Assembly (NCBI GenBank): GCA_963763775.1
Contig: CAVXPZ010000002.1
Coordinates: forward strand, 28,331-92,330
Source of the DNA: an uncultured Chloroflexia bacterium
Lineage (GTDB): Bacteria; Chloroflexota; Limnocylindria; Limnocylindrales; CSP1-4
Length of the DNA: 64,000 bases
Reading direction: 5' to 3'
Under the pieces are notes generated by a model. It did no database searches. It was not told the origin of the DNA and saw only the letters and a program-made list of their open reading frames with translations. This document shows positions 1-11,323 of the stretch, in pieces; position 1 is the stretch's first letter; every line of letters begins with the position of its first letter. The translations under genes and the position numbers were made by a program.

Positions 1-29
1 CGCTGCGCTACGAATAGAGGAGACCTTCC

Positions 30-716
30 GTGTCCGACGATCCCACCACCCAGCACATCACTCCGATCACCCCGGCGTCGTCCCCGGCACCGGTCCCGCC
101 GGCCCCCGGGATGTCGGCGTCCGTCGTCGAGCCCGCCCCGCCGAACCTCGAACCGGTCAGGCCGGTGACGACCGCCGCGGCGCCGCGCAAGGGTTCGTCC
201 GGGCGCTGGCTCAACGTCCTCCTTGGCGTCGCGGTCGTCGTCGCCATCGGCGGCGTGGCCTTCGCGGTCGGTCGCAGCACGGCTCCCGCCTCGGCAGCGG
301 CCGCCGGCAACGGCACCTTCCGGGGCAACTTCGGCAACGGCACCGGCAACGGACCCAACGCCAGCGGCGCCCCGGGCTTCGCGAACGGCGGCGGTCGCTT
401 CCTCGGCGGCCTCGGCGGTGGTGGCGTCACGATCAAGGGCACGGTCCAGTCCGTCAACGGCGACACGATGACGATCACCACCGCCAGCGGGCAGACCGTC
501 AACGTGACGACGAGCGGCGACACCGCGTACCACCAGCAGGCAGCCGCGACCGCCTCCGACGTGACCGTCGGCGCGGGCGTCTCGGTCCAGGTCGACGTGA
601 GCGGCTTCGGGCGCGGCAACGGGAACGGGAACAACGGCAACGGGAATGGCAACGGCAACGGGCGACCGGCAATGGCGGAACGACCGGCAACGGCACCGTG
701 CCCAGCCCGACCCTGA
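30..716 (+). CDS. DUF5666-like secreted/membrane-anchored protein (paralog of 5125-5991); likely 3' frameshift
   Basis: GTG start 6-8 nt after GAGGAG. One N-terminal TM helix, a Gly/Asn-rich region and the repeated beta-strand motif TIKGTVQSVNGDTMTITTASGQTVNVTT. A GNGNGN repeat near the 3' end is followed by an out-of-frame continuation (...GNGTVPSPTLTATDVTVVP, stop at 744), suggesting an indel around 680-700. Confidence 0.5.
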   Translation: MSDDPTTQHITPITPASSPAPVPPAPGMSASVVEPAPPNLEPVRPVTTAAAPRKGSSGRWLNVLLGVAVVVAIGGVAFAVGRSTAPASAAAAGNGTFRGNFGNGTGNGPNASGAPGFANGGGRFLGGLGGGGVTIKGTVQSVNGDTMTITTASGQTVNVTTSGDTAYHQQAAATASDVTVGAGVSVQVDVSGFGRGNGNGNNGNGNGNGNGRPAMAERPATAPCPARP

Positions 717-766
717 CGGCCACCGACGTCACCGTCGTCCCGTGACGAAGGGGTAGGCTGACCGCC

Positions 767-1441
767 ATGCATCTGCTCGTCATCGAGGACGACCCGCGGC
801 TCAGCCGGCTGCTCCGGCGGCTCCTCGAGGAGGACCGCCACGTGGTCGAGCTGGCCACGGATGGCGAGACCGGTGTGGACATCGCGACCGCCACCGACGG
901 CATCGAGGCGATCGTGCTCGACATCGGGTTGCCGGACATGTCCGGCATCGAAGTGGCCCGCCGGGTCCGGGCGACCGGGTCCGACGTGGCCATCCTGATG
1001 CTCACCGCCCGCGACACCGTCGGAGACCGGGTCACCGGGCTCGACGCCGGCGCGGACGACTATCTCGTGAAGCCGTTCGCGTACGAGGAGCTCTCGGCAC
1101 GCCTTCGGGCGCTGGGCCGGCGCGGGCACGGGTCGCGCAGGCCCGAGCCCAAGCTCGTCGTCGGCCCGATCACCCTCGACGAGACGTCGCGCCGCGTGAC
1201 CCTCGACGGCAAGCGCATCGACCTGTCGCCGCGCGAGTTCTCGCTCCTCGAGTGCTTCCTCCGGCATCCGGGCCAGACGCTCTCGCGCGACCAGCTCCTC
1301 GATCAGGCGTGGCCGTTCAGCGTCGCGGTCACGCCGAACGCGGTCGACGCGTACATCCACTACCTGCGCGAGAAGCTCGGCGGGTCCGGCGGCCTCATCG
1401 AGACGGTCCGCGGCGTCGGGTACCGGCTCGCCGATGCCTGA
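767..1441 (+). CDS. OmpR-family two-component response regulator
   Basis: Receiver domain (MHLLVIEDDPRLSRLL..., D-box) followed by a winged-helix output domain ending ...VRGVGYRLADA. Overlaps the downstream kinase by 8 nt. Confidence 0.9.
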   Translation: MHLLVIEDDPRLSRLLRRLLEEDRHVVELATDGETGVDIATATDGIEAIVLDIGLPDMSGIEVARRVRATGSDVAILMLTARDTVGDRVTGLDAGADDYLVKPFAYEELSARLRALGRRGHGSRRPEPKLVVGPITLDETSRRVTLDGKRIDLSPREFSLLECFLRHPGQTLSRDQLLDQAWPFSVAVTPNAVDAYIHYLREKLGGSGGLIETVRGVGYRLADA

Positions 1442-2826
1442 CGGGACCCGCGGCGCCGACGAGCGGACCGAGGGTGAGCGAGCGGCCGACGAGGCCGATG
1501 CCGCCCTGGTCCGGCACGTCCGGCGCAACCTGGTCCTGTGGAGCGGGCTGACCACGCTCGTCATCCTCGTGGCCCTCGCGGGCGCCTTGTTCGTCGCCGC
1601 CTCGAGCTCGCTCGCCAGCTCCGGCACGGCCCAGCTCGAGGCCCGGATGACGATGATCAAGGGCCTCGCGAGCGGCCAGCGGCCGAGACCGGACGGCGAC
1701 GACAACCCCTACGGGTTCATCTTCGGCCAGGGTTCCGGCACGTTCGCGATGATCCTCGACTCGACGGGACAGCCGATCCAGCGTCCGAACTTCCGCGTCC
1801 CGCCCGGCCTGCCGGATACGACCGCGGCCGCGGCGGCGGCCGGCTCGGGCCGTGACCTGCGGACCGCCGACATCGAGGGGACGCCGATCCGGATCCTGAC
1901 CGAGCCCGATCCAGGACGCCTCGGGGACGACCTTCCTCATCCAGGTGGTCCAGGATCGCACCGCGGAGGCCCAGACGCTCACCATCATGCTGGCGGTCCT
2001 GCTCGTCGGCGGCCTGGTCGTGGTGGTCGTCGCGTTCGGGTTCGGGACCGTGTACGCGCGACGGGCCCTCGTGCCGATCCGGCAGTCGCTCGGGAACCAG
2101 CGGGCGGCTCTGCGACGACAGCGCGACTTCGCCGCGGACGCGAGCCACGAGCTCCGGACGCCGCTCACCGTCATCCGGAGCAGCGTCGAGTACCTCGGCC
2201 GGCATCGGGACGAGCCGGTGGCCGTGGTGGGGACCGCGCTCGAGGACATCGATGACGAGGTCCGCCACATGACGGCGATCGTCGAGGACCTGCTGCTGCT
2301 CGCGCGATCCGACTCCGGCGCCATCGAGCTCGAGCGCGTCCCGGTCGACCTCGGCGACGTCGTCACCGACGGTGCCTCCGCGCTCGCCAAGCCGGCGGCC
2401 GACCGAGGCGTGCGCGTCGAGGTGGACGCCGAGCCCGCCGTCGTCACGGGCGACCCGGCGCGTCTCCGCCAGCTCGTCATGATCCTGGTCGACAACGCGA
2501 TCCGCCACAGCCCCTCGGGCGGTCGAGTCGGCGTGACCGTCCAGACGGACGCGACCGGTTCCACGCTCACGGTGGACGACGAAGGACCGGGGATCCGGCC
2601 AGAGGACCTGCCGCACGTCTTCGAGCGCTTCTACCGTGCGCCCGGAGCCCCCGGCGGTGGCACGGGTCTCGGGCTCGCGATCGCCGCCTGGATCGTGGCG
2701 CGCCACGGCGGGCGGATCGCCGTCGGGAACCGGGCGAGCGGCGGCGCCAGCTTCAAGGTCCAGATCCCGAGCTCGAGCTCCGTGCGGCCGCTGCAGCCGG
2801 CAGCTCAGGCGGCGGACGCCAGATAG
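1434..2826 (+). CDS. sensor histidine kinase (apparent frameshift near 1900-1915)
   Basis: The 5' ORF encodes a TM and sensor region. The 3' ORF (another frame) carries the H-box ASHELRTPLT and an HATPase_c domain (GTGLGLAIA). The two frames join cleanly (...RILTEP / DASGTTFLIQVVQDRTAEAQTL), so a single indel splits the gene. Confidence 0.8.
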
Positions 2827-3539
2827 GGGTCCATCCCGGGTGTCCAGACGAGACGCCCGTCGGTGGTGATGGCCATCGCGGCGTGGTCGGGTCGGTCGGC
2901 CACCCAGGCCAGCCCGTCGAGACCCATCACGAAGGCCGCGGTCGCGTAGGCGTCCACGAAGGCGAGCCGCGGCCCGACCACGGTCAGGCTCCGCAGCGAC
3001 GTGGCCGGGTCGCCCGTGCGCGGGTCCAGGATGTGGTCGCCCCGCTCGTACGTGCCGGATGTCGCCACGGCTCGGTCGGTCACCGAGACCATCGCGGCGA
3101 TGCGGTCGACTCGGTCCGGGTGCCGGATCCCGATCCGCCAGGGTCGGCCGTCGTCGGCCAGGCCGCGGGCCAGGATGTCGCCGCCCGCGTTGATGAGGTA
3201 GTCGTCGACGCCCGCGTCATCGAGGATCCACGCAGCTTCCTCGACGGCCCAGCCCTTGACATAGGCCGACGGGTCGAGCCCGCCCACGGCCGGCTGCCGA
3301 CGCGCGTCGAACGCACCGCCGCTCGTCACCGCGAGGTGGTCACAGGCGGCGAGGACGTGCCGGACGTCGGGACTGCAGGTCTCCTCGGTCAGCTCGCCGC
3401 GGGCCAGACGGCTGATCTCGCTGTCGGCGCGGTACGTGCTGAACCGGGCGTCCACCTCGCGCAGATGGTCGACGACCCGGTCGAGGACGCCCGGCGGGAC
3501 CGCCTCGCGACGGGTGTCGATGCTGACCGCCGTCCCCAT
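2805..3539 (-). CDS. apbE: FAD:protein FMN transferase (ApbE family)
   Basis: N-terminal MGTAVSIDTR motif and full-length similarity to ApbE flavin transferases. The longer ORF upstream of the Met is Arg-rich and looks non-coding. Last gene of the minus-strand flavinylation operon. Confidence 0.8.
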   Translation of the reverse strand: MGTAVSIDTRREAVPPGVLDRVVDHLREVDARFSTYRADSEISRLARGELTEETCSPDVRHVLAACDHLAVTSGGAFDARRQPAVGGLDPSAYVKGWAVEEAAWILDDAGVDDYLINAGGDILARGLADDGRPWRIGIRHPDRVDRIAAMVSVTDRAVATSGTYERGDHILDPRTGDPATSLRSLTVVGPRLAFVDAYATAAFVMGLDGLAWVADRPDHAAMAITTDGRLVWTPGMDPYLASAA

Positions 3540-3564
3540 GACGTGCTCGACGCGGGTCGCCACC

Positions 3565-4074
3565 CTAGATCCCCGCCTGGTCCAGCGCGGCCTGGAGGCT
3601 CTGGGCGTAAGCCTCGCTCGTGTACGTCGCACCGGAGACCCCGTCGATATTGGCGCTCTGCGCCTGGAGTGCCTGCTCGCGCAGGAGCGGCTCGGCCGCC
3701 CGCGAGATCCGACCCGAGTGGCCACCGGACGGCAGCTGCATGGCCGTGATGTCGGTGACCTTGCCGCCGCTCACGGTGATCGAGACCTGCACGGGTCCGA
3801 ACTGCGTGTCGACGACCGGGCCGCTGACCGTGGCGCCGGCCGGCGTGGCCGTCGCGCCAGATCCGGTCGTCGGGGCCGATGTCGCCGCCGGGGTCGTGGT
3901 CGTGCCGCCGGCGGTCGTGCCGCCGGCCGTCGTCGGCGCCGCTGTGGCCGTGTCGGCGAATGCGCTGCCGCTGATCGAGTTGCCGACCACCTGGTCGGGG
4001 GTCTTGAAACTGAGCAACAGGATCAGGGCGACCGTCGTGACGGCGATGGCGGCTGCGCCGCGTTTGGGAAACAT
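3565..4074 (-). CDS. FMN-binding domain protein (ApbE substrate type), membrane-anchored
   Basis: Start MFPKRG with an N-terminal TM helix and a Thr/Ala-rich linker. C-terminal FMN_bind-type domain (...SITVSGGKVTDITAMQLPSGGHSGRISRAAEPLLREQALQAQSANIDGVSGATYTSEAY) containing the flavinylation-type motif GVSGAT. Confidence 0.8.
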   Translation of the reverse strand: MFPKRGAAAIAVTTVALILLLSFKTPDQVVGNSISGSAFADTATAAPTTAGGTTAGGTTTTPAATSAPTTGSGATATPAGATVSGPVVDTQFGPVQVSITVSGGKVTDITAMQLPSGGHSGRISRAAEPLLREQALQAQSANIDGVSGATYTSEAYAQSLQAALDQAGI

Positions 4075-4085
4075 CGATCCGGACC

Positions 4086-4946
4086 TCAGCTCTGGGTGGC
4101 GCCCACGGCCTGCTGGATCAGGCTCGACGCGGCGCTGATGGGGATCGCGAAGCCGAGTCCCTCGGCCTCGGAGGACACGGCGGTGTTGACGCCGACGACG
4201 GCCCCGCTGGCGTCCAGCAGCGGCCCGCCGCTGTTGCCGGGGTTGATCGCCGCGTCGGTCTGGATGAGGCCCGTGAGGGTCTCCGGCTGGCCCGTCTCCT
4301 CGTCGGACACCGTGATCGTGCGGTCGACCGCGGAGACGATGCCCTTGGTGACGGTTTCGGTGAACGTGCCGAGCGGGCTGCCGATCGCGATGGCTTCCTG
4401 CCCGACCTGGAGCGGGGTCGCGCCCGCGATCCGCGCCGCCGCGAGACCGGTGGCCTCGACCTTGATCAGGGCCAGGTCCTGATCGTCCGAGATCTTGACG
4501 ACCTGCGCGTCGTACTGCGTGCCGTCCTCGAGTTCGACCGACAGGGACGAGCTCCCGGCCACGACGTGGCGGTTCGTCAGGATGTAGCCGTCGGCCGTCA
4601 GGATGATCCCGGAGCCCACGCCGGTCGTCGGGACCGCGAACGGCGACAAGCCACCGCCGGACTGGCTGTCCGCCGTGATCGTCACGACCGAGGCGGTCGC
4701 GGCGGCCACCACGTCCGTGATGTCCTTGGCCTTGGCGGCGGTCATCCCGACGGCCGTGCCCGAGCCGACCGAGGCCGGCGTCGCGGACGCGGCTGGCGCG
4801 CCACCGCCCACGATCAGCGCTGCGGTGGTGGTCGAGGCGAGGACCGCGGACAGCAGCGAGACCGCGAAGACGGAGCGGCCGAGGCGGCGCGTCGGCGTTG
4901 CCGGGGAGCGCCCGGGCTCCGGGGCGGCGGCGCTCTGGCGTGTCAT
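4086..4946 (-). CDS. trypsin-like serine protease (S1C, HtrA-like, no PDZ domain)
   Basis: N-terminal TM helix, then a chymotrypsin fold with the motifs TNRHVV (His), DLALIK (Asp) and GNSGGPL (Ser). Confidence 0.8.
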   Translation of the reverse strand: MTRQSAAAPEPGRSPATPTRRLGRSVFAVSLLSAVLASTTTAALIVGGGAPAASATPASVGSGTAVGMTAAKAKDITDVVAAATASVVTITADSQSGGGLSPFAVPTTGVGSGIILTADGYILTNRHVVAGSSSLSVELEDGTQYDAQVVKISDDQDLALIKVEATGLAAARIAGATPLQVGQEAIAIGSPLGTFTETVTKGIVSAVDRTITVSDEETGQPETLTGLIQTDAAINPGNSGGPLLDASGAVVGVNTAVSSEAEGLGFAIPISAASSLIQQAVGATQS

Positions 4947-5124
4947 CGCGGGGCGCCGGGGTCAGGACGGTGGTGTCGTACATCGGGGGTTCTCCAGGTC
5001 GTCGCGTCGCGTCGGTCCCTCCCCGACGATCCCCATGTAAGCCGGTTCGCGTGAGAGGCTGCTGAGAATCGAACGACGCGGCGACCGCGAGGGTCGCCGC
5101 GTCGTCTCGGGTCGGTGCCGCGAG

Positions 5125-5991
5125 TCAGCCGGCGCCGGCGGACGGGACCGGGGAGGCGTTCGGCGAACCGTCCTGCGGGCCGCTGGCGCCCGGCCAGCCG
5201 GGGCCGTCGCCGTCGCGATGGAACATGCCGCCGCCGAGGCCGCCGGCGACCGCCTCTGCGTCGAGCGAGCCGTCGGCGCGCTGGGTGCCCTGGGCCACGA
5301 TGAACGCGTCCACCTTGATGTCCGCGAGCGTCGGGTTCGTGACGCCGGCGACCTGGTAGGTCGTCGAGCTGTCGACATGGATCGTCTGGGTCGTCCCCCC
5401 GAAGCCCTGGACCGTGATGGTGGAGCCGTCGACCTTCGTGACCTGGCCGAAGACGGTCGGGATCACGACACGCACGGCCGTGATGGTGTAGGTGCCATCG
5501 GTCTGGCGATCCTGGCGGAACGAGATCTGGTCGCCGACCTTGAGGTCAGCCACCGCGATCGTCTTGCCGGCCCGCGTGATCGCGGTGTCGCTCGTGACGG
5601 TGATGGTCCGTGTCCAGCCGTCGTCGGTCTTGAGCGAGAGATCGGAGCCGTTGATCGCCGTGATGGTCACGCCGCGTCCGACCCCGAATCCGGGGCCTGC
5701 GTCACCACCGAAGAAGCCGAAGCCGCGGCCGCCCATCATCGGACCGCCGTTGCGTGGGCCGAGGTTCGGGTCCGCCGAGGTGGCCGGTGCGCTGGACGGC
5801 GCCGCCGACGGATCGGTCACGGTCGACGGGTCGGCACCGGTCGACGGCGCGGGCGAGGCGCCCATCACCGACATCACGCCGACCGCGAAGAGCAACGCGG
5901 AACCCAGGACGATCCCGCCCCGCGTCGCGCCTCGCGACAGGAGTGGGCGATGGATGCGCTCGTGGAACTCGGTGGGCTCTCGCTCGGTCAT
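5125..5991 (-). CDS. DUF5666-like secreted protein (paralog of 30-716)
   Basis: N-terminal TM/signal helix, a Gly-rich segment and a repeated T-x-T-V/I beta-strand pattern (GVTITAINGSDLSLKTDDGWTRTITVTSDTAITRAGKTIAV...), the same architecture as the first ORF. Confidence 0.55.
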   Translation of the reverse strand: MTEREPTEFHERIHRPLLSRGATRGGIVLGSALLFAVGVMSVMGASPAPSTGADPSTVTDPSAAPSSAPATSADPNLGPRNGGPMMGGRGFGFFGGDAGPGFGVGRGVTITAINGSDLSLKTDDGWTRTITVTSDTAITRAGKTIAVADLKVGDQISFRQDRQTDGTYTITAVRVVIPTVFGQVTKVDGSTITVQGFGGTTQTIHVDSSTTYQVAGVTNPTLADIKVDAFIVAQGTQRADGSLDAEAVAGGLGGGMFHRDGDGPGWPGASGPQDGSPNASPVPSAGAG

Positions 5992-6017
5992 TCGGACACT
6001 CCGTGGTCGTGTTGGGA

Positions 6018-6069
6018 TCTCGATGGCGGGTCGATGGACGGACCCGTGCAGCGCTGAGTCTCGATGGCG
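6018..6069. promoter_or_regulatory. three direct repeats TCGATGG(C/A)CG upstream of the DUF5666-htrA-FMNbind-apbE operon; candidate response-regulator operator
   Basis: TCTCGATGGCG at 6018-6028 and 6059-6069, TCGATGGACG at 6031-6040. Spacings are about 11 and 30 bp (helical periodicity). They lie 27-75 bp upstream of the 5991 start codon. Confidence 0.35.
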
Positions 6070-6163
6070 ATTCTTCGAGGGTCCTGAGAACGGGCGGATC
6101 CGGGGCGTGCGGGCAACATCGTCGGCGTCGCCGTCTCGGCGGGGCGCGTGAGCCCCGACCGGG

Positions 6164-7546
6164 CTAGTACGCGAACCGCTCGGCGTGGATCTGCGATCCC
6201 GGGACGCGCAGTTCGGCCAGCGACGCCTCGACGGTCTGCATCATCGGGACCGGGGCGCAGATGTAGACATCGCGGTCGACGACGTCGGGCACGAGCGTCA
6301 GCAAGGCGCGAGGCGCCAACGGATCCCCGGGCATGGCCGCGGACCCGCGTCGACCGATCACGTAGTGCACCGCGATGCCGCGCTGGCGAGCCAGCTGGTC
6401 GAGCTCGTCGCGGAAGACGATGTCGGCGGGTCGGGCCGCGCGATAGACGAGCACGAGCTCGCCGGGAGCGGCCGGCAGGGCCTCCAGCAGCGCGCGCAGC
6501 GGCGTGATGCCGATACCGCCGGCGATCATCAGGACCCGGCGTCGCGTCCGTCGGGCCCCCGTGAGGATCCCGTACGGCCCCTCGACGCCGACGCGCGTCC
6601 CCGCGTGGATCTCCTGGAGCTGCTTGGACCAATCGCCGAGGTCCTTGACGGTGATCCGCAGCCAGCGGCCGTTCGGCGCCGACGAGATCGAGAAGGGATG
6701 GGCCCGCCACCAGCCGTCGCGCGTGAGGAACCGCCACTGGAACCACTGGCCGGCACGGACGGCGAGCTGATCGAGGTCACGGCCCGTGATGTAGAGGCTG
6801 ACCACGCCCGGCGCCTCCTGGACGACGTTGGCGACCACGAGGCGGTGTCGAAGCGACGTCCGGACCGGCTGTCCGACCCGGAAGACCAGGATGAGCGCGA
6901 TGGTCGCGAGGTACAGCCCGATCCAGTACATCGACGCGACCTGGTCGTGCATGAAGTCCGAGCCCACGAAGAGCTGGTGGAGGAACCCGAGGGCGATCGC
7001 GAGGTAGGCGTACAGGTGGATGCCGTACCACGTCTCCCGCGACAGCTTTCGACGCGCGGCCCGGATCGAGGTGATCGTCACGGCCGCGAACAGGCCGGCG
7101 CTGACGGTGGCCATGAGGACGTAGGGATACGTGGTCACGAGCGCGACGAACTCGTCGACGACGCTCGAGCCGTCACCCAGGGCGTAGCCGACCGTCGTCG
7201 CGACGATGTGGCCGAGCAACAGCCAGGCCGTGGCGAACCCGAGCCACCGATGGGCGACCGCGAGGCCGTCCATCCCGAAGGTCTGGTCGAGCCATGGACT
7301 CCGGGACATGAGGACGAGCTGGATGAGGGCGAAGTAGGTGCCGTAGAGCGCGGTGACCTGGCCGATCGCCGTCAGGAGCCCGGCAGGGCTCGAGAGCTCG
7401 GCCGTGCCGCCGTGGCGGAACCACATCAACCCGATCACGATCGCCTGGGCGATCAGGACCGCCACGACGTCCGCGCCGCGCAGCCGACGCGACCGCGGCA
7501 TCGGGACGGCGCGCGGTGCAGCGGCAGTCTGCGGGCGGCTGGTCAT
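6164..7546 (-). CDS. ferric-reductase-like transmembrane flavocytochrome (FRD domain + FAD-binding + NAD(P)-binding; NOX/MsrQ-like)
   Basis: About 6 TM helices with conserved His pairs, then the ferredoxin-reductase-type motifs HPFSISS (FAD) and MIAGGIGITP (NAD). The upstream part of the longer ORF is Arg-rich, so the start is placed at MTSRPQ. Confidence 0.8.
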   Translation of the reverse strand: MTSRPQTAAAPRAVPMPRSRRLRGADVVAVLIAQAIVIGLMWFRHGGTAELSSPAGLLTAIGQVTALYGTYFALIQLVLMSRSPWLDQTFGMDGLAVAHRWLGFATAWLLLGHIVATTVGYALGDGSSVVDEFVALVTTYPYVLMATVSAGLFAAVTITSIRAARRKLSRETWYGIHLYAYLAIALGFLHQLFVGSDFMHDQVASMYWIGLYLATIALILVFRVGQPVRTSLRHRLVVANVVQEAPGVVSLYITGRDLDQLAVRAGQWFQWRFLTRDGWWRAHPFSISSAPNGRWLRITVKDLGDWSKQLQEIHAGTRVGVEGPYGILTGARRTRRRVLMIAGGIGITPLRALLEALPAAPGELVLVYRAARPADIVFRDELDQLARQRGIAVHYVIGRRGSAAMPGDPLAPRALLTLVPDVVDRDVYICAPVPMMQTVEASLAELRVPGSQIHAERFAY

Positions 7547-7616
7547 GGTCCGGATGCTGGGGCCGGACGCTGAGAGGAATCTGAGAGCGCGATACTGCGC
7601 GGGACAGGAGGTTCGG

Positions 7617-9620
7617 ATGCGAGAACCCGGCCCCTCGTGGCCGATCTTCGGGCGCGACGGCGACGGCGTGGCGTGGCGACCTGATCCGGCCATGACCGGG
7701 GCGTCGCTCCTCGAGGGGTTCCTCCGGACCACCGGGGAGCGGAGTCTCGAGACGGTGCAGGCCCGCGCGGCCGCCGACCCGGCATGGTTCTGGGGAGCGG
7801 CGGCGGACGACGTCGGGATCCGCTGGCAGCGCCGGCCGTCCGGGATCCTCGACCTCTCCGGCGGGCCGGCGTGGGCTCGCTGGTGGAGCGGGGCTGCCTG
7901 GAACTACGCGCGCGCCGCGGTCGAGGCGGCCGACGCCGCGGACGGGGACCGGCCCCGGCTCGTCTGGGAAGGCGAGGACGGCGCGGTCGTCACGCTGACC
8001 GGCCGAGAGCTCGCCGCGGCCGTCGACGTGGCGGTCCGTCGCCTGGCCGCGCACGGGGTGCGTCCCGGCGACCGGGTCGGGGTGCTGCTGCCGATGCTTC
8101 CCGAGACCGTGGTCTCGGTCCTCGCCCTCGGCCGGCTCCAGGCGATCTTCACGCCGATCTTCAGCGGCTACGGCGCACCGGCGATCGCGACCCGGCTCGC
8201 CGACTGCGAGGCGTCGCTGCTGATCACCGCGGACGGGTTCCTGCGGCGTGGGACATGGGTCCAGCTCAAGGCCGTCGCCGACGAGGCGGTCGCGGGCGTC
8301 CCGTCGATCCGCCGGTTGCTCGTGGTCCGCCGCGCGGGCGACGCCCTCGAGACACCCTGGACCCAGGGCCGCGACGCCTGGTGGCACGACCCGGTGGCCG
8401 GGGAGGCCGGCGGTCCCGCGCCCGATGCCGGCAGCGAGACCGATCCCGAGACGCCGTACATGCTCATCTACACATCGGGCACGACCGGGCGTCCGAAGGG
8501 GGCGGTCCACGTGCACGGCGGCTTCCCGATCAAGGCCGCCCAGGACCTGGCCCATCAGTTCGACCTCGGACCGGCCGACACGCTCTTCTGGTTCACGGAC
8601 CTGGGCTGGATGATGGGCCCGTGGGCGATCGCCGGCACACTGCTCCGCGGTGCTCGACTCGTCCTCTACGAGGGCGCGCCGGACTTCCCGGGGCCGGACC
8701 GGCTGTGGTCCCTGGTGGCACGCCACCGGGTCACCCACCTCGGCCTGTCCCCCACCGTCATCCGCGCGCTGATGGCCCACGGCGAGGAACCGGTCCGGTC
8801 GCACGACCGCTCGTCGCTCCGGGTCCTCGGCTCGACCGGCGAGCCGTGGAACCCGAGCCCTTGGTGGTGGTATTTCCGCGAGGTCGGGGAGGGCCGCTGC
8901 CCGATCGTCAACTACTCGGGCGGGACCGAGGTCTCGGGCGGGATCGTGTCCGGGAACGTCGTCGGGCCGATCAAGCCGGCGTCGTTCTCGGGGCCGTGCA
9001 TCGGGACCATCGCGGACGTCGTGGACGAGGCGGGGACCTCGGTGCGCGGCGCGGTGGGCGAACTCGTGATCCGGGCGCCGATGCCGGGCATGACCCGGGG
9101 GTTCTGGCGCGATCCCGAGCGCTACGAGTCCACCTATTGGTCGCGGATCCCCGGCACGTGGGTCCATGGCGACTGGGCGCTCCGTGGATCCGACGGCTTC
9201 TGGTACATCCACGGCCGGTCCGACGACACGCTCAAGGTGGCCGGCAAGCGCGTCGGGCCGGCGGAGGTCGAGAGTGCGGCCGTCTCGCACCCGGCAGTCC
9301 TGGAGGCGGCCGCGATCGGCGTCCCGCACGAGATCAAGGGGGAGGTCGTCGTGGTGCTCTGCGTCCTGCGCCCGGGAGAGACCGACGACCCGGCACTCCG
9401 ATCGGCGATCTCCGCGACCGTCGCCGAGCAGCTCGGCAAGCCGCTCAAGCCCGAGACGGTCGCCGTGGTCCGGGCCCTGCCCAAGACGCGCTCGGGCAAG
9501 GTCATGCGCCGCGTCGCCCGCGCGACATGGCTGGGTCTCGACCCGGGTGACCTCTCGACCCTCGATGACGCCGGGGCGCTCGACGCGATCCGGTCCGTGG
9601 CCCCACCGCGACCGGGCTGA
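7617..9620 (+). CDS. AMP-forming acyl-CoA synthetase (acetyl-CoA synthetase-like)
   Basis: ATG follows GGAGG. AMP-binding motifs YTSGTTGRPKGAV and WFTDLGWMMG, plus a C-terminal ...KTRSGKVMRR typical of the Acs family. Confidence 0.85.
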   Translation: MREPGPSWPIFGRDGDGVAWRPDPAMTGASLLEGFLRTTGERSLETVQARAAADPAWFWGAAADDVGIRWQRRPSGILDLSGGPAWARWWSGAAWNYARAAVEAADAADGDRPRLVWEGEDGAVVTLTGRELAAAVDVAVRRLAAHGVRPGDRVGVLLPMLPETVVSVLALGRLQAIFTPIFSGYGAPAIATRLADCEASLLITADGFLRRGTWVQLKAVADEAVAGVPSIRRLLVVRRAGDALETPWTQGRDAWWHDPVAGEAGGPAPDAGSETDPETPYMLIYTSGTTGRPKGAVHVHGGFPIKAAQDLAHQFDLGPADTLFWFTDLGWMMGPWAIAGTLLRGARLVLYEGAPDFPGPDRLWSLVARHRVTHLGLSPTVIRALMAHGEEPVRSHDRSSLRVLGSTGEPWNPSPWWWYFREVGEGRCPIVNYSGGTEVSGGIVSGNVVGPIKPASFSGPCIGTIADVVDEAGTSVRGAVGELVIRAPMPGMTRGFWRDPERYESTYWSRIPGTWVHGDWALRGSDGFWYIHGRSDDTLKVAGKRVGPAEVESAAVSHPAVLEAAAIGVPHEIKGEVVVVLCVLRPGETDDPALRSAISATVAEQLGKPLKPETVAVVRALPKTRSGKVMRRVARATWLGLDPGDLSTLDDAGALDAIRSVAPPRPG

Positions 9621-9690
9621 CCGGTCATGGCCGGCCGGCGCGACGGTCGCGGCCGGCCCGCGACGGCCGCGGCGCCGTATCCTTGGCGAC

Positions 9691-10164
9691 GTGCAGACGA
9701 CCACGGCCCCCGACCGCGACATCGTCACCTGGGACGAGCTGGACCGACTCGTGGCGGACCTGGCGGAACGGCTGACCGGCGCCCAATTCGACGTGATGCT
9801 GGCGATCACCCGCGGCGGTCTCGTGCCCGCAGGCATGCTCGCCTATCGGCTGCGCCTGCGGAACATCCTCGTCGCCGCCGTCGAGTACTACGACGACCAC
9901 GGCAAGCCGGGGCCGCACCCCACGTTCCTGCAGTTCCCGGCGGATCCGCTCCTGCGCGGTCAGCGGGTGCTCATCGTCGACGAGGTCTGGGACAGCGGGA
10001 CGACGATCCACGCCGTGACGGATCGCGTGCTGCAAGCGGGCGGCATCCCGACGACGGCGGTCCTGCACTTCAAGCCGGCGCGGTCGCGCGTCCCCGGCCG
10101 GCCGGACGTGTTCGCGGTGGAGACCGACCGATGGGTCGTGTATCCCTTCAAAGCGGGCGGCTGA
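9691..10164 (+). CDS. type I phosphoribosyltransferase (purine/xanthine PRT-like)
   Basis: GTG start. PRPP-binding motif VLIVDEVWDSGTT. 158 aa. Confidence 0.7.
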   Translation: MQTTTAPDRDIVTWDELDRLVADLAERLTGAQFDVMLAITRGGLVPAGMLAYRLRLRNILVAAVEYYDDHGKPGPHPTFLQFPADPLLRGQRVLIVDEVWDSGTTIHAVTDRVLQAGGIPTTAVLHFKPARSRVPGRPDVFAVETDRWVVYPFKAGG

Positions 10165-10237
10165 CCATCGGTCGGTCCCCAGAACCAACCTGTGCCGTGC
10201 GGCCCGATGCCGCGCCATCGACCAACGGAGGCCGATC

Positions 10238-11323
10238 GTGACGACCCAGTCGATACTCCTCGTCGGAACGAAGAAGGGGGCGTTCATCCTCGAGAGCGAC
10301 GCGTCGCGTCACGACTGGACCGTGCGCGGGCCGTTGTGCGAGGGCTGGCCGATCCACGACCTGATCGTGGATCCGGCGAGCGGGGCGATCCTCGCGGCCG
10401 GCGGCAGCCCGTGGTTCGGGCCTGCCGTGTGGCGGAGCGACGACCGCGGCGAGACGTGGACCCACTCCTCGGACGGGCTCACGTACGGTGACGACGCACC
10501 GGCGGCCGTGAAGACCGTCTGGAGCCTGGCCGTGGCTCCTGACGGCACGATCCTGGCCGGGGTCGAGCCCGCCGGGCTGTTCAGGAGCCGGGATGGCGGC
10601 ACGACCTGGACGCATGTCGAGGGCCTCACGAATCATCCGACTCGCCCGACGTGGGGCCCCGGAGCGGGCGGCCTCATCCTCCATACGATCGTCCCGCACC
10701 CGGTCGATCCCGATCGCACCTGGGTAGGGATCTCGGCGGTCGGGGTCTTCGAGACCCAGGACGGCGGCGTCTCGTGGGAACCGCGCAACGTCGGCGTGCG
10801 TGCCGGGTTCCTGCCGGACCCCCATCCGATCACCGGCCAATGCGTCCACAAGTTCGCCATGGCGGCCGGCGAGCCGGACACGCTCTACCAGCAGAACCAC
10901 TGCGGCGTCTACCGTTCGGACGACGCGGGCGCGACGTGGATCGAGCTCACGGACAACGGCCTGCCGAGCGAGTTCTCGTTCCCGCTCGTGACCCACCCGC
11001 GCGACCCGGACACGGCCTGGGTGATCCCGCTCAACGGCGCCGACCAGGGACGGTTCGTCCCCGACGCGCGCCCGGCGGTCTGGCGGACCCACGATCGCGG
11101 CACGTCCTGGATCCGGGCGGATGCGGGCCTGCCGTCCGAGCACGCCTACTTCACGATCCTGCGCGAGGCCATGGCCCGTGACACGCTGGATCCGGTCGGC
11201 GTCTCGTTCGGCACGGAGACCGGCCAGCTCTGGCACAGCGCGGACGAGGGCCTGTCGTGGCGTCTGGTCACCGATGCGCTGCCGGAGATCTGGGCGGTCG
11301 AGGCCGCGGTCATCGAGCGCTGA
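10238..11323 (+). CDS. BNR/Asp-box repeat beta-propeller protein (sialidase fold, Ycf48-like)
   Basis: GTG after GGAGG. Six Asp-box motifs (SDDRGETWT, SRDGGTTWT, TQDGGVSWE, SDDAGATWI, THDRGTSWI, SADEGLSWR). Confidence 0.7.
   Translation: MTTQSILLVGTKKGAFILESDASRHDWTVRGPLCEGWPIHDLIVDPASGAILAAGGSPWFGPAVWRSDDRGETWTHSSDGLTYGDDAPAAVKTVWSLAVAPDGTILAGVEPAGLFRSRDGGTTWTHVEGLTNHPTRPTWGPGAGGLILHTIVPHPVDPDRTWVGISAVGVFETQDGGVSWEPRNVGVRAGFLPDPHPITGQCVHKFAMAAGEPDTLYQQNHCGVYRSDDAGATWIELTDNGLPSEFSFPLVTHPRDPDTAWVIPLNGADQGRFVPDARPAVWRTHDRGTSWIRADAGLPSEHAYFTILREAMARDTLDPVGVSFGTETGQLWHSADEGLSWRLVTDALPEIWAVEAAVIER

Follow-up and report, generated by a model that had tools for sequence, protein, structure and literature searches.

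The window analysed here is a 64 kb stretch of DNA from a soil Chloroflexota bacterium (GC content 70–75%), and the locus in question comprises eight genes (positions 30–7546, delimited from the open reading frame listing and Pfam searches) in which a two-component system adjoins a flavin-based redox module, a serine protease and two DUF5666 proteins. A preliminary description of this DNA had read five co-directional minus-strand genes (7546–2805) as one operon and had looked to the Actinobacteria for conservation of the neighbourhood. The open reading frames confirmed the five genes, but every close relative found with the ferric-reductase-domain protein (FRD; 63–83% identity) was a Chloroflexota metagenome-assembled genome (MAG). 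According to our analysis, the region is probably the local part of a two-component-system regulon and not a single five-gene operon. Its parts are ordinary and the redox trio is already known; it is the apparent common control that is newly visible. The genes and features are the following.

30–745, plus strand: DUF5666a, a single-pass membrane protein with one OB-like barrel, directly 5' of the response regulator gene
767–1441, plus strand: response regulator (RR) of the OmpR/PhoB family, with a receiver domain and a winged-helix Trans_reg_C domain (Pfam)
1434–2826, plus strand: sensor histidine kinase (HK), with a transmembrane helix, an outer loop of about 125 aa, a second transmembrane helix, HisKA and HATPase_c
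2805–3539, minus strand: ApbE-type FAD:protein FMN transferase, 244 aa (Pfam ApbE, 1.8e-52)
3565–4074, minus strand: membrane-anchored FMN_bind protein (Pfam FMN_bind, 7.1e-10)
4086–4946, minus strand: membrane-anchored S1C (HtrA-type) serine protease, catalytic domain only (Pfam Trypsin_2, 5.8e-33)
5051–5067, minus strand: predicted RR box TCTCAG-CAGCC-TCTCAC for the protease-FMN_bind-ApbE promoter, with TTACAT (5040–5035) 10 nt on
5125–5991, minus strand: DUF5666b (Pfam PF18914, 32.6 bits)
6069–6059 and 6028–6018, minus strand: pair of 11-nt repeats CGCCATCGAGA, the first overlapping the spacer and the -10-like hexamer, the second in the 5' leader
6073–6089, minus strand: predicted RR box TCTCAG-GACCC-TCGAAG for the DUF5666b promoter, with GAGACT (6062–6057) 10 nt on
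6164–7546, minus strand: FRD, a NOX-like flavocytochrome (Pfam Ferric_reduct, 6.3e-15; FAD_binding_8; NAD_binding_1)
7570–7586, minus strand: predicted RR box TCTCAG-ATTCC-TCTCAG for the FRD promoter, with CAGCAT (7559–7554) 10 nt on

On the minus strand, FRD and DUF5666b are separated by 172 nt and DUF5666b and the protease gene by 178 nt; the gaps between protease and FMN_bind and between FMN_bind and ApbE are 11 and 25 nt. Since each of the two long gaps carries its own promoter-like box, we argue for three transcription units (FRD; DUF5666b; protease-FMN_bind-ApbE) in place of the single operon first described. No sigma-70 consensus promoter was found in positions 1–8000, which fits activator-dependent promoters. 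A terminator scan of the same interval gave one terminator-like match, inside DUF5666b and at the chance level; an Rfam scan of 1–9000 for leader RNAs gave nothing at E <= 0.1, and tblastn of all locus proteins against the remaining window revealed zero additional paralogues.

The candidate operator box was searched on both strands with the pattern TYTYAS-N5-YYBNAS. In the window it occurs exactly three times, always on the coding strand and in the intergenic gap that precedes FRD, DUF5666b or the protease gene; as this count is unremarkable, the weight rests on the position of the boxes and on their conservation. Across 90 related loci (L001 to L090; 595 kb), 80 boxes were observed, compared with 14.9 ± 4.2 expected. 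Half of them (40) precede DUF5666b homologues; another 17 are found upstream of the protease, eight upstream of FRD and two upstream of the MFP gene, and the remaining 13 are mostly protease-type sites truncated by contig ends. The MFP-gene box heads an MFP-ABC-FtsX-DUF5666a-RR-HK operon in L004 and L008, and with this fourth box the system would be autoregulated.

A -10-like hexamer is found exactly 10 nt downstream of each box (GAGACT, CAGCAT and TTACAT, with variants in the relatives), and the spacing of 10 nt is constant, the hexamer having the form nAnnnT or TTnnAT. This distance implies that the box takes the place of the -35 element, much as regulator boxes do at promoters under OmpR/PhoB-type activation. 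At the FRD promoter, 7 nt separate the hexamer from the ATG at 7546. The box ends 22–25 nt before the ATG in L006, L007, L011 and L022 and 39 nt before it in L025, so that the short distance is seen in four of the five close relatives with a self-promoted FRD. The proximity of box and hexamer to the ATG points to a leaderless mRNA and backs 7546 as the start.

A direct repeat preceding the operon had previously been put forward as the operator. The 11-nt repeat CGCCATCGAGA is exact at both positions and occurs nowhere else in the window, but its place is in the gap from the FRD stop (6164) to the DUF5666b start (5991) and not before the five genes. We rejected it as an operator, as it is specific to the window and conserved in none of the relatives, among them L011 (the closest), L006, L007, L019 and L022. 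The conserved block TTCTCAG-GACCC-TCGAAGAAT at 6089–6073 lies just upstream of the repeat, and its TCTCAG box is preferred here as the putative operator. The idea of sensor control itself gains strong comparative support from the 80 boxes, although control would be exerted through another operator than the repeats at 6018–6069.

We infer that the phosphorylated RR (767–1441) binds a direct repeat of 11-bp period with the consensus (T)TCTCAG-N5-TCTCAG, the second half-site being TYGAAG at the DUF5666b promoter. From the -35 position it would activate three promoters: P1 (FRD, leaderless), P2 (DUF5666b) and P3 (protease, FMN_bind and ApbE). One could instead assume that redox trio, protease/DUF5666 pair and sensor pair (RR and kinase) have unrelated functions and were merely inherited side by side, with the hexamers being a product of chance or a quirk of the lineage. 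Most of the loci do come from one Chloroflexota clade with common flanking genes, and the box count of the window is not significant by itself. We consider this explanation highly improbable, as it leaves unaccounted for 80 boxes where 15 are expected, nearly all of them on the coding strand, at a fixed distance from the hexamer and at the same four gene types. Furthermore, the box is kept at stand-alone DUF5666b genes in unrelated contexts, the gene order has been shuffled with the neighbourhood retained, and the sensor pair is tied to the trio in a second phylum (see below). The flanking genes in question are located 5' of FRD (window 7353–11323) and encode an AMP-binding acyl/acetyl-CoA synthetase-like protein, a phosphoribosyltransferase and a BNR/Sortilin-like repeat protein. 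Their synteny is kept in L007–L009 and none of them carries a box, so that they appear to be outside the proposed regulon.

The sensor pair, described at the outset as an OmpR/HK pair, consists of an OmpR-type RR and a kinase with HisKA and HATPase_c domains in its C-terminal part. The RR matches Response_reg (7e-26) and Trans_reg_C (3.8e-25) in Pfam and is 86–94% identical to the RRs of the related loci. No NCBIfam equivalog was reached at its cut-off, and no MprA model was among the 25 best matches. The nearest solved structures are those of PrrA (E 8.5e-46) and PhoP (E 3.7e-44) from Mycobacterium tuberculosis. PhoP binds TCACAGC direct repeats with a 4-bp spacer and an 11-bp period (PMC4832192), i.e., repeats with the same period and almost the same hexamer as the boxes of the window. 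The outer loop of the kinase contains zero Cys and zero His residues.

The reading frame of the kinase is interrupted by one extra G at 1908, as seen in the three-frame translation and by comparison with the intact kinases of L012, L006 and L007. Another shift occurs at about 655–665, inside a GGC/AAC repeat of DUF5666a: as read, this protein has 228 aa (30–716) and seems to stop at 716, and the conserved C-terminus (...TATDVTVVP before the stop) is found in another frame, ending at 745. Two single-base frame errors (1908 and ~660) within 2 kb suggest errors of assembly and not decay, and frame breaks are frequent in the related MAG contigs (e.g., in ApbE of L001 and FRD of L004). The frameshifts are therefore probably (long-read) assembly errors, a truly inactivated kinase being the alternative.

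The five genes are kept together in related Chloroflexota genomes, as had been anticipated, yet in five different orders in which the same genes are still neighbours. The order of the window, FRD-DUF-Prot-FMN-ApbE-(HK RR DUFa), recurs in L006, L007, L012, L019 and L022. In L001, L004, L005, L013 and L014 the order is DUF-Prot-FRD-FMN-ApbE, and boxes are present only at DUF5666b (one) and at the protease (one). L025, L026 and L027 have FMN(-)|FRD-DUF-Prot(-ApbE); L003 has FRD-FMN-ApbE-DUF with a divergent RR-HK; and L002 has FRD-FMN-ApbE-MFP-ABC-FtsX-RR-HK. In this last locus, genes for Nramp-family and CDF-family metal transporters (L002 6839–9430) lie directly upstream of the FRD array in divergent orientation.

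The conserved neighbourhood could be taken to mean that all five minus-strand genes form one integrated extracytoplasmic redox machine, in which DUF5666b and the protease are structural or maturation subunits (e.g., an electron acceptor and a processing protease). This would agree with the adjacency of the five genes in several Chloroflexota orders, with the position of the protease translationally near FMN_bind (an 11-nt gap) and with one operator predicted to be common to all five. However, DUF5666b and the protease accompany the sensor pair without FRD, FMN_bind and ApbE as DUF-Prot-(HK RR) in L010, L024 and L053, as DUF-Prot-RR-HK in L061 and as RR-HK-DUF-Prot in L063; DUF5666b accompanies it without protease or redox genes as DUF-(HK RR) in L008 and L009 and as RR-HK-DUF in L090. 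DUF5666b genes that retain the box also occur alone beside unrelated genes (GH3 hydrolase, DNA methylase, glyoxalase). In a DUF5666b-centred sample, the protease was directly downstream in 12 of the 42 loci with enough sequence, and FRD was directly upstream in only 5 of 32. Nine Actinobacterial trios possess neither DUF5666 nor the protease, and DUF5666b has no redox-cofactor motif in the alignment, its TGAD segment not being a conserved flavinylation site. We therefore regard the one-machine explanation as unlikely, and the claim that DUF5666 and the protease are intrinsic parts of the redox chain was not upheld: they have boxes of their own and occur with the sensor pair in the absence of redox genes (L008–L010, L024, L053, L061 and L063). 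A protease-type TCTCAG box stands directly after DUF5666b in L008 and L009 (10899–10915 in both), at the point where a protease gene would begin, although FRD, protease, FMN_bind and ApbE are absent from these loci; this leftover box suggests a secondary loss of the protease and redox genes.

Under the regulon interpretation, the trio of FRD, FMN_bind and ApbE is one of two modules. FRD has two His pairs for two b hemes (H99-x13-H113 and H177-x12-H190) and, C-terminal to the heme domain, the FAD site HPFS283 and the NAD(P)H site GGIGITP343. Of the Pfam domains expected for it, Ferric_reduct and FAD_binding_8 were detected, whereas the NAD-binding part matched NAD_binding_1 instead of NAD_binding_6. 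Its closest solved structure is a bacterial FAD-binding FR-type protein of 399–400 aa (8QT6/8QQ7; E 5.5e-12), which we take to be SpNOX of Streptococcus pneumoniae. FMN_bind, ApbE and DUF5666 all gave the expected domain matches. The FMN_bind protein has an N-terminal hydrophobic anchor (transmembrane residues 4–26 by hydropathy) and starts 11 nt past the protease stop; KR or RR dipeptides precede the N-terminal anchor of FMN_bind partners. The GVSGAT motif noticed earlier is present as D144-G-V-S-G-A-T150, which fits Dxx[S/T]GA[S/T] and makes Thr150 (codon 3625–3627) the predicted acceptor residue. The protein matches SaFMN3-D2 (PDB 8P2A) at E 4e-24 with the flavinylation motifs aligned, and for SaFMN3-D2 covalent FMN has been shown experimentally upon co-expression with ApbE.

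PF01794 (Ferric_reduct), FMN_bind and ApbE are encoded together within 4.8 kb. Clusters in which a PF01794 protein is encoded together with ApbE and an FMN-binding protein have been described as "MsrQ-like" (Meheust et al., 2021, eLife; PMC8238504). Of the 1797 clusters found, 1437 have a fusion to the NAD-binding domain PF00175; they are widely conserved among Actinobacteria, and NAD(P)H was proposed as the cytosolic donor whose electrons pass via the hemes to an extracytosolic covalent FMN (PMC8238504). A follow-up study modelled the heme protein with its membrane-anchored flavinylated partner (PMC10979944). Domains and motifs of the window trio agree with this class, as had been recognised, and the assignment of FRD, FMN_bind and ApbE to a post-translationally flavinylated transmembrane electron-transfer module is supported by their sequences. 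A path driven by NAD(P)H, from FAD through two hemes to a covalent FMN on the membrane-anchored outer domain, is likewise well supported by the predicted sites. This electron-export module would thus carry electrons from cytosolic NAD(P)H to FAD and the two b hemes of the NOX-like protein, and then to the FMN attached by ApbE to Thr150 of FMN_bind and to an outside acceptor.

ApbE itself has no signal peptide, lipobox or transmembrane segment (hydropathy). Its N-terminus (MGTAVSID...) is non-hydrophobic and the relatives align from residue 1; signal-less ApbE proteins are also predicted by hydropathy in trios of Streptomyces, Microbacterium and Citricoccus. The length of ApbE in this cluster class is 244–256 aa (window 2805–3539; L091 8663–9430; L092 8773–9531; L093 8775–9536; L097 7778–8536). 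The classical ApbE is an exported lipoprotein, and signal-less ApbEs are known to act on cytosolic substrates (PMC12052999). With a signal-less ApbE, flavinylation might take place before FMN_bind is exported, e.g., by a Tat-like route.

The other module would be an envelope quality-control-like one, consisting of the HtrA-type protease without PDZ domain, the pair of single-pass DUF5666 proteins with their OB folds and an exporter of the MacB type. The designation of the protease as HtrA-like holds for its catalytic domain, a trypsin fold (Pfam Trypsin_2, also Trypsin) with the triad H127, D157 and S239, but a PDZ domain was absent in the Pfam search. The C-terminus lies 5 residues beyond the protease domain. 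NCBIfam HtrA models match only over positions 7–257 of 357, far under their cut-offs.

DUF5666b exceeds the gathering score of PF18914 (32.6 bits, with a cut-off of 27) and belongs to a large family with at least 1395 homologues, all environmental, which receives only passing mentions in the published literature. In the alignment, a conserved cytoplasmic N-terminal EFHERIxRP is followed by one transmembrane helix. Next come MGASP, which is juxtamembrane and invariant, a linker rich in Pro/Ser/Ala and in Gly, the two barrels, in which D124, W126, R128, D165, H205 and D244 do not vary, and a conserved C-terminal ASPAPS tail. The AlphaFold2 model shows residues 105–252 as two five-stranded OB-fold barrels (pLDDT above 90). 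A Foldseek search of the PDB retrieved tandem cold-shock/S1/OB domains (E about 4e-4), i.e., generic OB barrels and no functional homologue, and a profile search against sequences of solved structures gave low-complexity matches only. Three motifs outside the barrels (residues 9–17, 43–47 and 279–284) are kept across 39 homologues; EFHERIxRP, MGASP and ASPAPS could function in the binding of a partner, in cleavage and as a tag for degradation. As a flavinylation substrate DUF5666b was rejected, since its juxtamembrane TGAD/TGAS/TGAT is not a conserved [S/T]GA[S/T] site.

DUF5666a had been named a second paralogue upstream of the sensor genes. It gave no match in the Pfam DUF5666 search, and its coding end is at 745 and not at 716; the relationship itself was borne out by comparison of the two families with hhalign (96.8%, E 2.9e-10, spanning the transmembrane helix, the linker and the first barrel), which indicates that DUF5666a, with a transmembrane helix at residues 58–85 by hydropathy, is a true distant paralogue of DUF5666b. 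In the relatives it starts about 10 nt past the stop of the FtsX permease and has its own ribosome-binding site, so the sensor genes are probably co-transcribed with a MacB-type MFP/ABC/FtsX system just outside the window. Two-component systems may have accessory proteins such as LiaF, YycHI, CseA and CpxP. By analogy with these, DUF5666a may be an accessory partner of the kinase and DUF5666b an induced protein that provides feedback or acts as an adaptor together with the protease, comparable to CpxP and DegP.

A converse sample was obtained by tblastn of FRD against PLSDB plasmids, which gave 12 non-redundant loci. Nine of these carry FRD, FMN_bind and ApbE, and three carry FRD alone. An OmpR-type RR and a HAMP kinase occur within 7 kb in eight of the nine trio loci (four from Streptomyces, two from Microbacterium, one each from Citricoccus and Frigoribacterium), where the arrangement is divergent, co-directional or convergent, and at none of the three FRD-only loci. 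The neighbourhood looked for in Actinobacteria was therefore found for the OmpR-type pair, but DUF5666 and the protease are absent from all 12 plasmid loci. The sensor pair accompanies DUF5666b and the protease at loci free of redox genes, and it accompanies Actinobacterial trios that lack DUF5666 and protease; it is thus the common denominator. The four Streptomyces RR|FRD intergenic regions contain direct repeats at 11-bp period: TTTCAG-N5-ACACAG, TTTCAG-N5-ATCCAG and GCTCAG-N5-CCTCAG on the FRD side and, most clearly, A(C/T)TCAG-AGGAA-ACTCAG on the RR side, together with looser variants. The literature search found no paper on a link between a sensor pair and MsrQ-like clusters, and response regulators and histidine kinases are not mentioned in the main text of PMC8238504.

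In the Micrococcales plasmids L093, L094, L097 and L098 a VIT-family gene flanks the trio, and in L094 and L097 a DUF2231 gene also lies beside it. The VIT|FRD intergenic regions of L093 (~6775–6800) and L097 (~5775–5800) have CTAAGAATYCTGGAAGAA in common, an 11-bp-period repeat of nnAAG half-sites that is similar both to TYGAAGAAT, one half of the DUF5666b box, and to TKTTAAGAAM, the MprA motif of Corynebacterium glutamicum.

These data invite a wider proposal, which we put forward tentatively and with more doubt than confidence. An OmpR-type pair with a YTCAG direct-repeat operator may be the conserved master of NOX-like/FMN_bind/ApbE modules in both Actinomycetota and Chloroflexota. In Chloroflexota it would have been fused with an envelope quality-control response (the PDZ-less HtrA-type protease and a new single-pass tandem-OB DUF5666 family as kinase accessory and feedback/adaptor protein), the exported reducing power would go into repairing or defending the envelope and not into respiration, and FMN_bind would be flavinylated in the cytosol before export. 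Protection or repair of the envelope is the function favoured here, on account of the co-regulation with the protease and the MacB-type exporter and of the HprSR-MsrPQ precedent discussed below; it is compatible with metal assimilation.

Such an assimilatory role has to be weighed separately: the redox module could be a metal (iron) reductase, with the sensor pair reading metal status and the MacB/FtsX ABC system and OB-fold proteins handling the metal or its chelate, and this would be compatible with the regulon architecture. Of the MsrQ-like clusters, 153 occur with a VIT1 iron transporter (Meheust et al.; PMC8238504), FRD is flanked by a gene of the VIT family at the loci from Microbacterium, Citricoccus and Frigoribacterium, and the Nramp and CDF transporter genes adjoin FRD in L002. 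In Bifidobacterium breve, iron limitation induces sifABCDE, which encodes an FtsX-type ABC system and a membrane FMN-binding protein, and in a screen for growth under iron chelation the impaired mutants included those of sif and of apbE (PMC5449479). DUF5666b also resembles the copper chaperone CusF, but the match is weak and under threshold (E 0.005), and by fold the protein matches generic OB barrels. Within the window, no metal transporter, siderophore or Fur/IdeR-type element was found in or beside the locus; the kinase loop is devoid of Cys and His, and the co-regulated protease speaks for protein quality control over metal uptake. A metal-reductase function therefore seems to us rather unlikely.

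Several observations weigh against the regulon interpretation, or parts of it. The box pattern was derived from L001–L010, so that solely L011–L090, which were fetched afterwards, test it independently. The three boxes of the window are not significant alone, as 1.5 are expected and 18 of 100 shuffled sequences reach three. The RR is only 40–45% identical to its Actinobacterial neighbours, a value ordinary for the family that does not establish orthology, and if the kinase frameshift were real, the switch would be broken in the window. As for the modules, ApbE has no export signal although the FMN_bind domain that it would modify is predicted to be outside, a gene for the terminal electron acceptor was not identified, and the roles suggested for the DUF5666 proteins are analogies.

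If the regulon interpretation is correct, a conserved and testable operator ties three promoters to the adjacent sensor pair. The loci compared also give evidence that linkage to a sensor pair is a general, yet apparently undescribed, trait of these clusters in two phyla. For the physiological role and the control of the approximately 1800 MsrQ-like clusters, the operator and the sensor pair provide an experimental handle; finding the stimulus of the kinase or mapping the RR regulon could reveal the purpose of the exported electrons. The results also give DUF5666 a first structural and genomic context, as an OB-fold protein anchored in the membrane, predicted to be the most constant target of the RR, and a frequent partner of a PDZ-less HtrA. 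Finally, the signal-less ApbE raises the testable question of the compartment in which flavinylation takes place.

The bacterial NADPH oxidase homologues (8QT6/8QQ7) and the eukaryotic NOX/DUOX proteins have the same domain order, bis-heme, HPFS and GxGxxP sites as FRD, whereas identity is low and FRD is encoded alongside a dedicated flavinylated partner and ApbE. This partner suggests that the acceptor is a protein-bound flavin and not O2.

The CpxAR-CpxP-DegP system of Escherichia coli is similar in that a small envelope protein is the most constant carrier of the box and a DegP-like protease, encoded near the sensor genes, is predicted to be co-induced. CpxP and the DUF5666 proteins are nevertheless unrelated in sequence and fold, CpxP being helical and DUF5666 an OB barrel, with DUF5666b anchored in the membrane. 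In E. coli HprSR (YedVW), an OmpR-type pair lies beside hiuH-msrPQ and controls a ferric-reductase-domain heme membrane protein, as the sensor pair of the window lies beside an FRD-family heme protein. The hiuH-msrPQ operon also includes a small periplasmic beta-rich protein, and its heme protein brings cytosolic reducing power to the envelope; MsrQ and Fre were reportedly the subject of Juillan-Binard et al. (2017; cited in PMC8238504). Unlike that system, the locus and its flanks (window, L007 and L019) contain no gene for an MsrP-type molybdoenzyme, the window protein has its reductase domain fused, and the predicted acceptor is the flavinylated FMN_bind.

The sensor pair beside an HtrA-type protease recalls mycobacterial MprAB-PepD, MprAB-HtrA of C. 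glutamicum and systems of the CssRS-HtrA type. The MprA box of M. tuberculosis is reported to consist of two 8-bp direct repeats 3 nt apart. In C. glutamicum the MprA motif is TKTTAAGAAM, to which the half-site TYGAAGAAT at the DUF5666b promoter is similar. In MprAB systems with PepD/HtrA, the OmpR-type pair adjoins and controls the HtrA-type protease gene and is autoregulated (PMC12113857). The same arrangement is predicted here, with putative boxes upstream of the protease (window and 17 loci) and of the MFP...RR-HK operon (L004 and L008). In contrast to the MprAB type, the protease of the window has no PDZ domain, the RR reaches no NCBIfam equivalog cut-off, and the proposed regulon adds the NOX-like flavinylation module, the DUF5666 proteins and the MacB-type ABC system.

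The MsrQ-like class has the same fusion of FRD to an NAD-binding domain, the same FMN_bind and apbE genes and the same proposed electron path. The published clusters are mainly from Actinobacteria, whereas that of the window is from Chloroflexota, and its ApbE is without a signal peptide. In contrast to that class, the trio of the window is split by two separately promoted genes and is linked by a predicted common operator to the adjacent two-component system.

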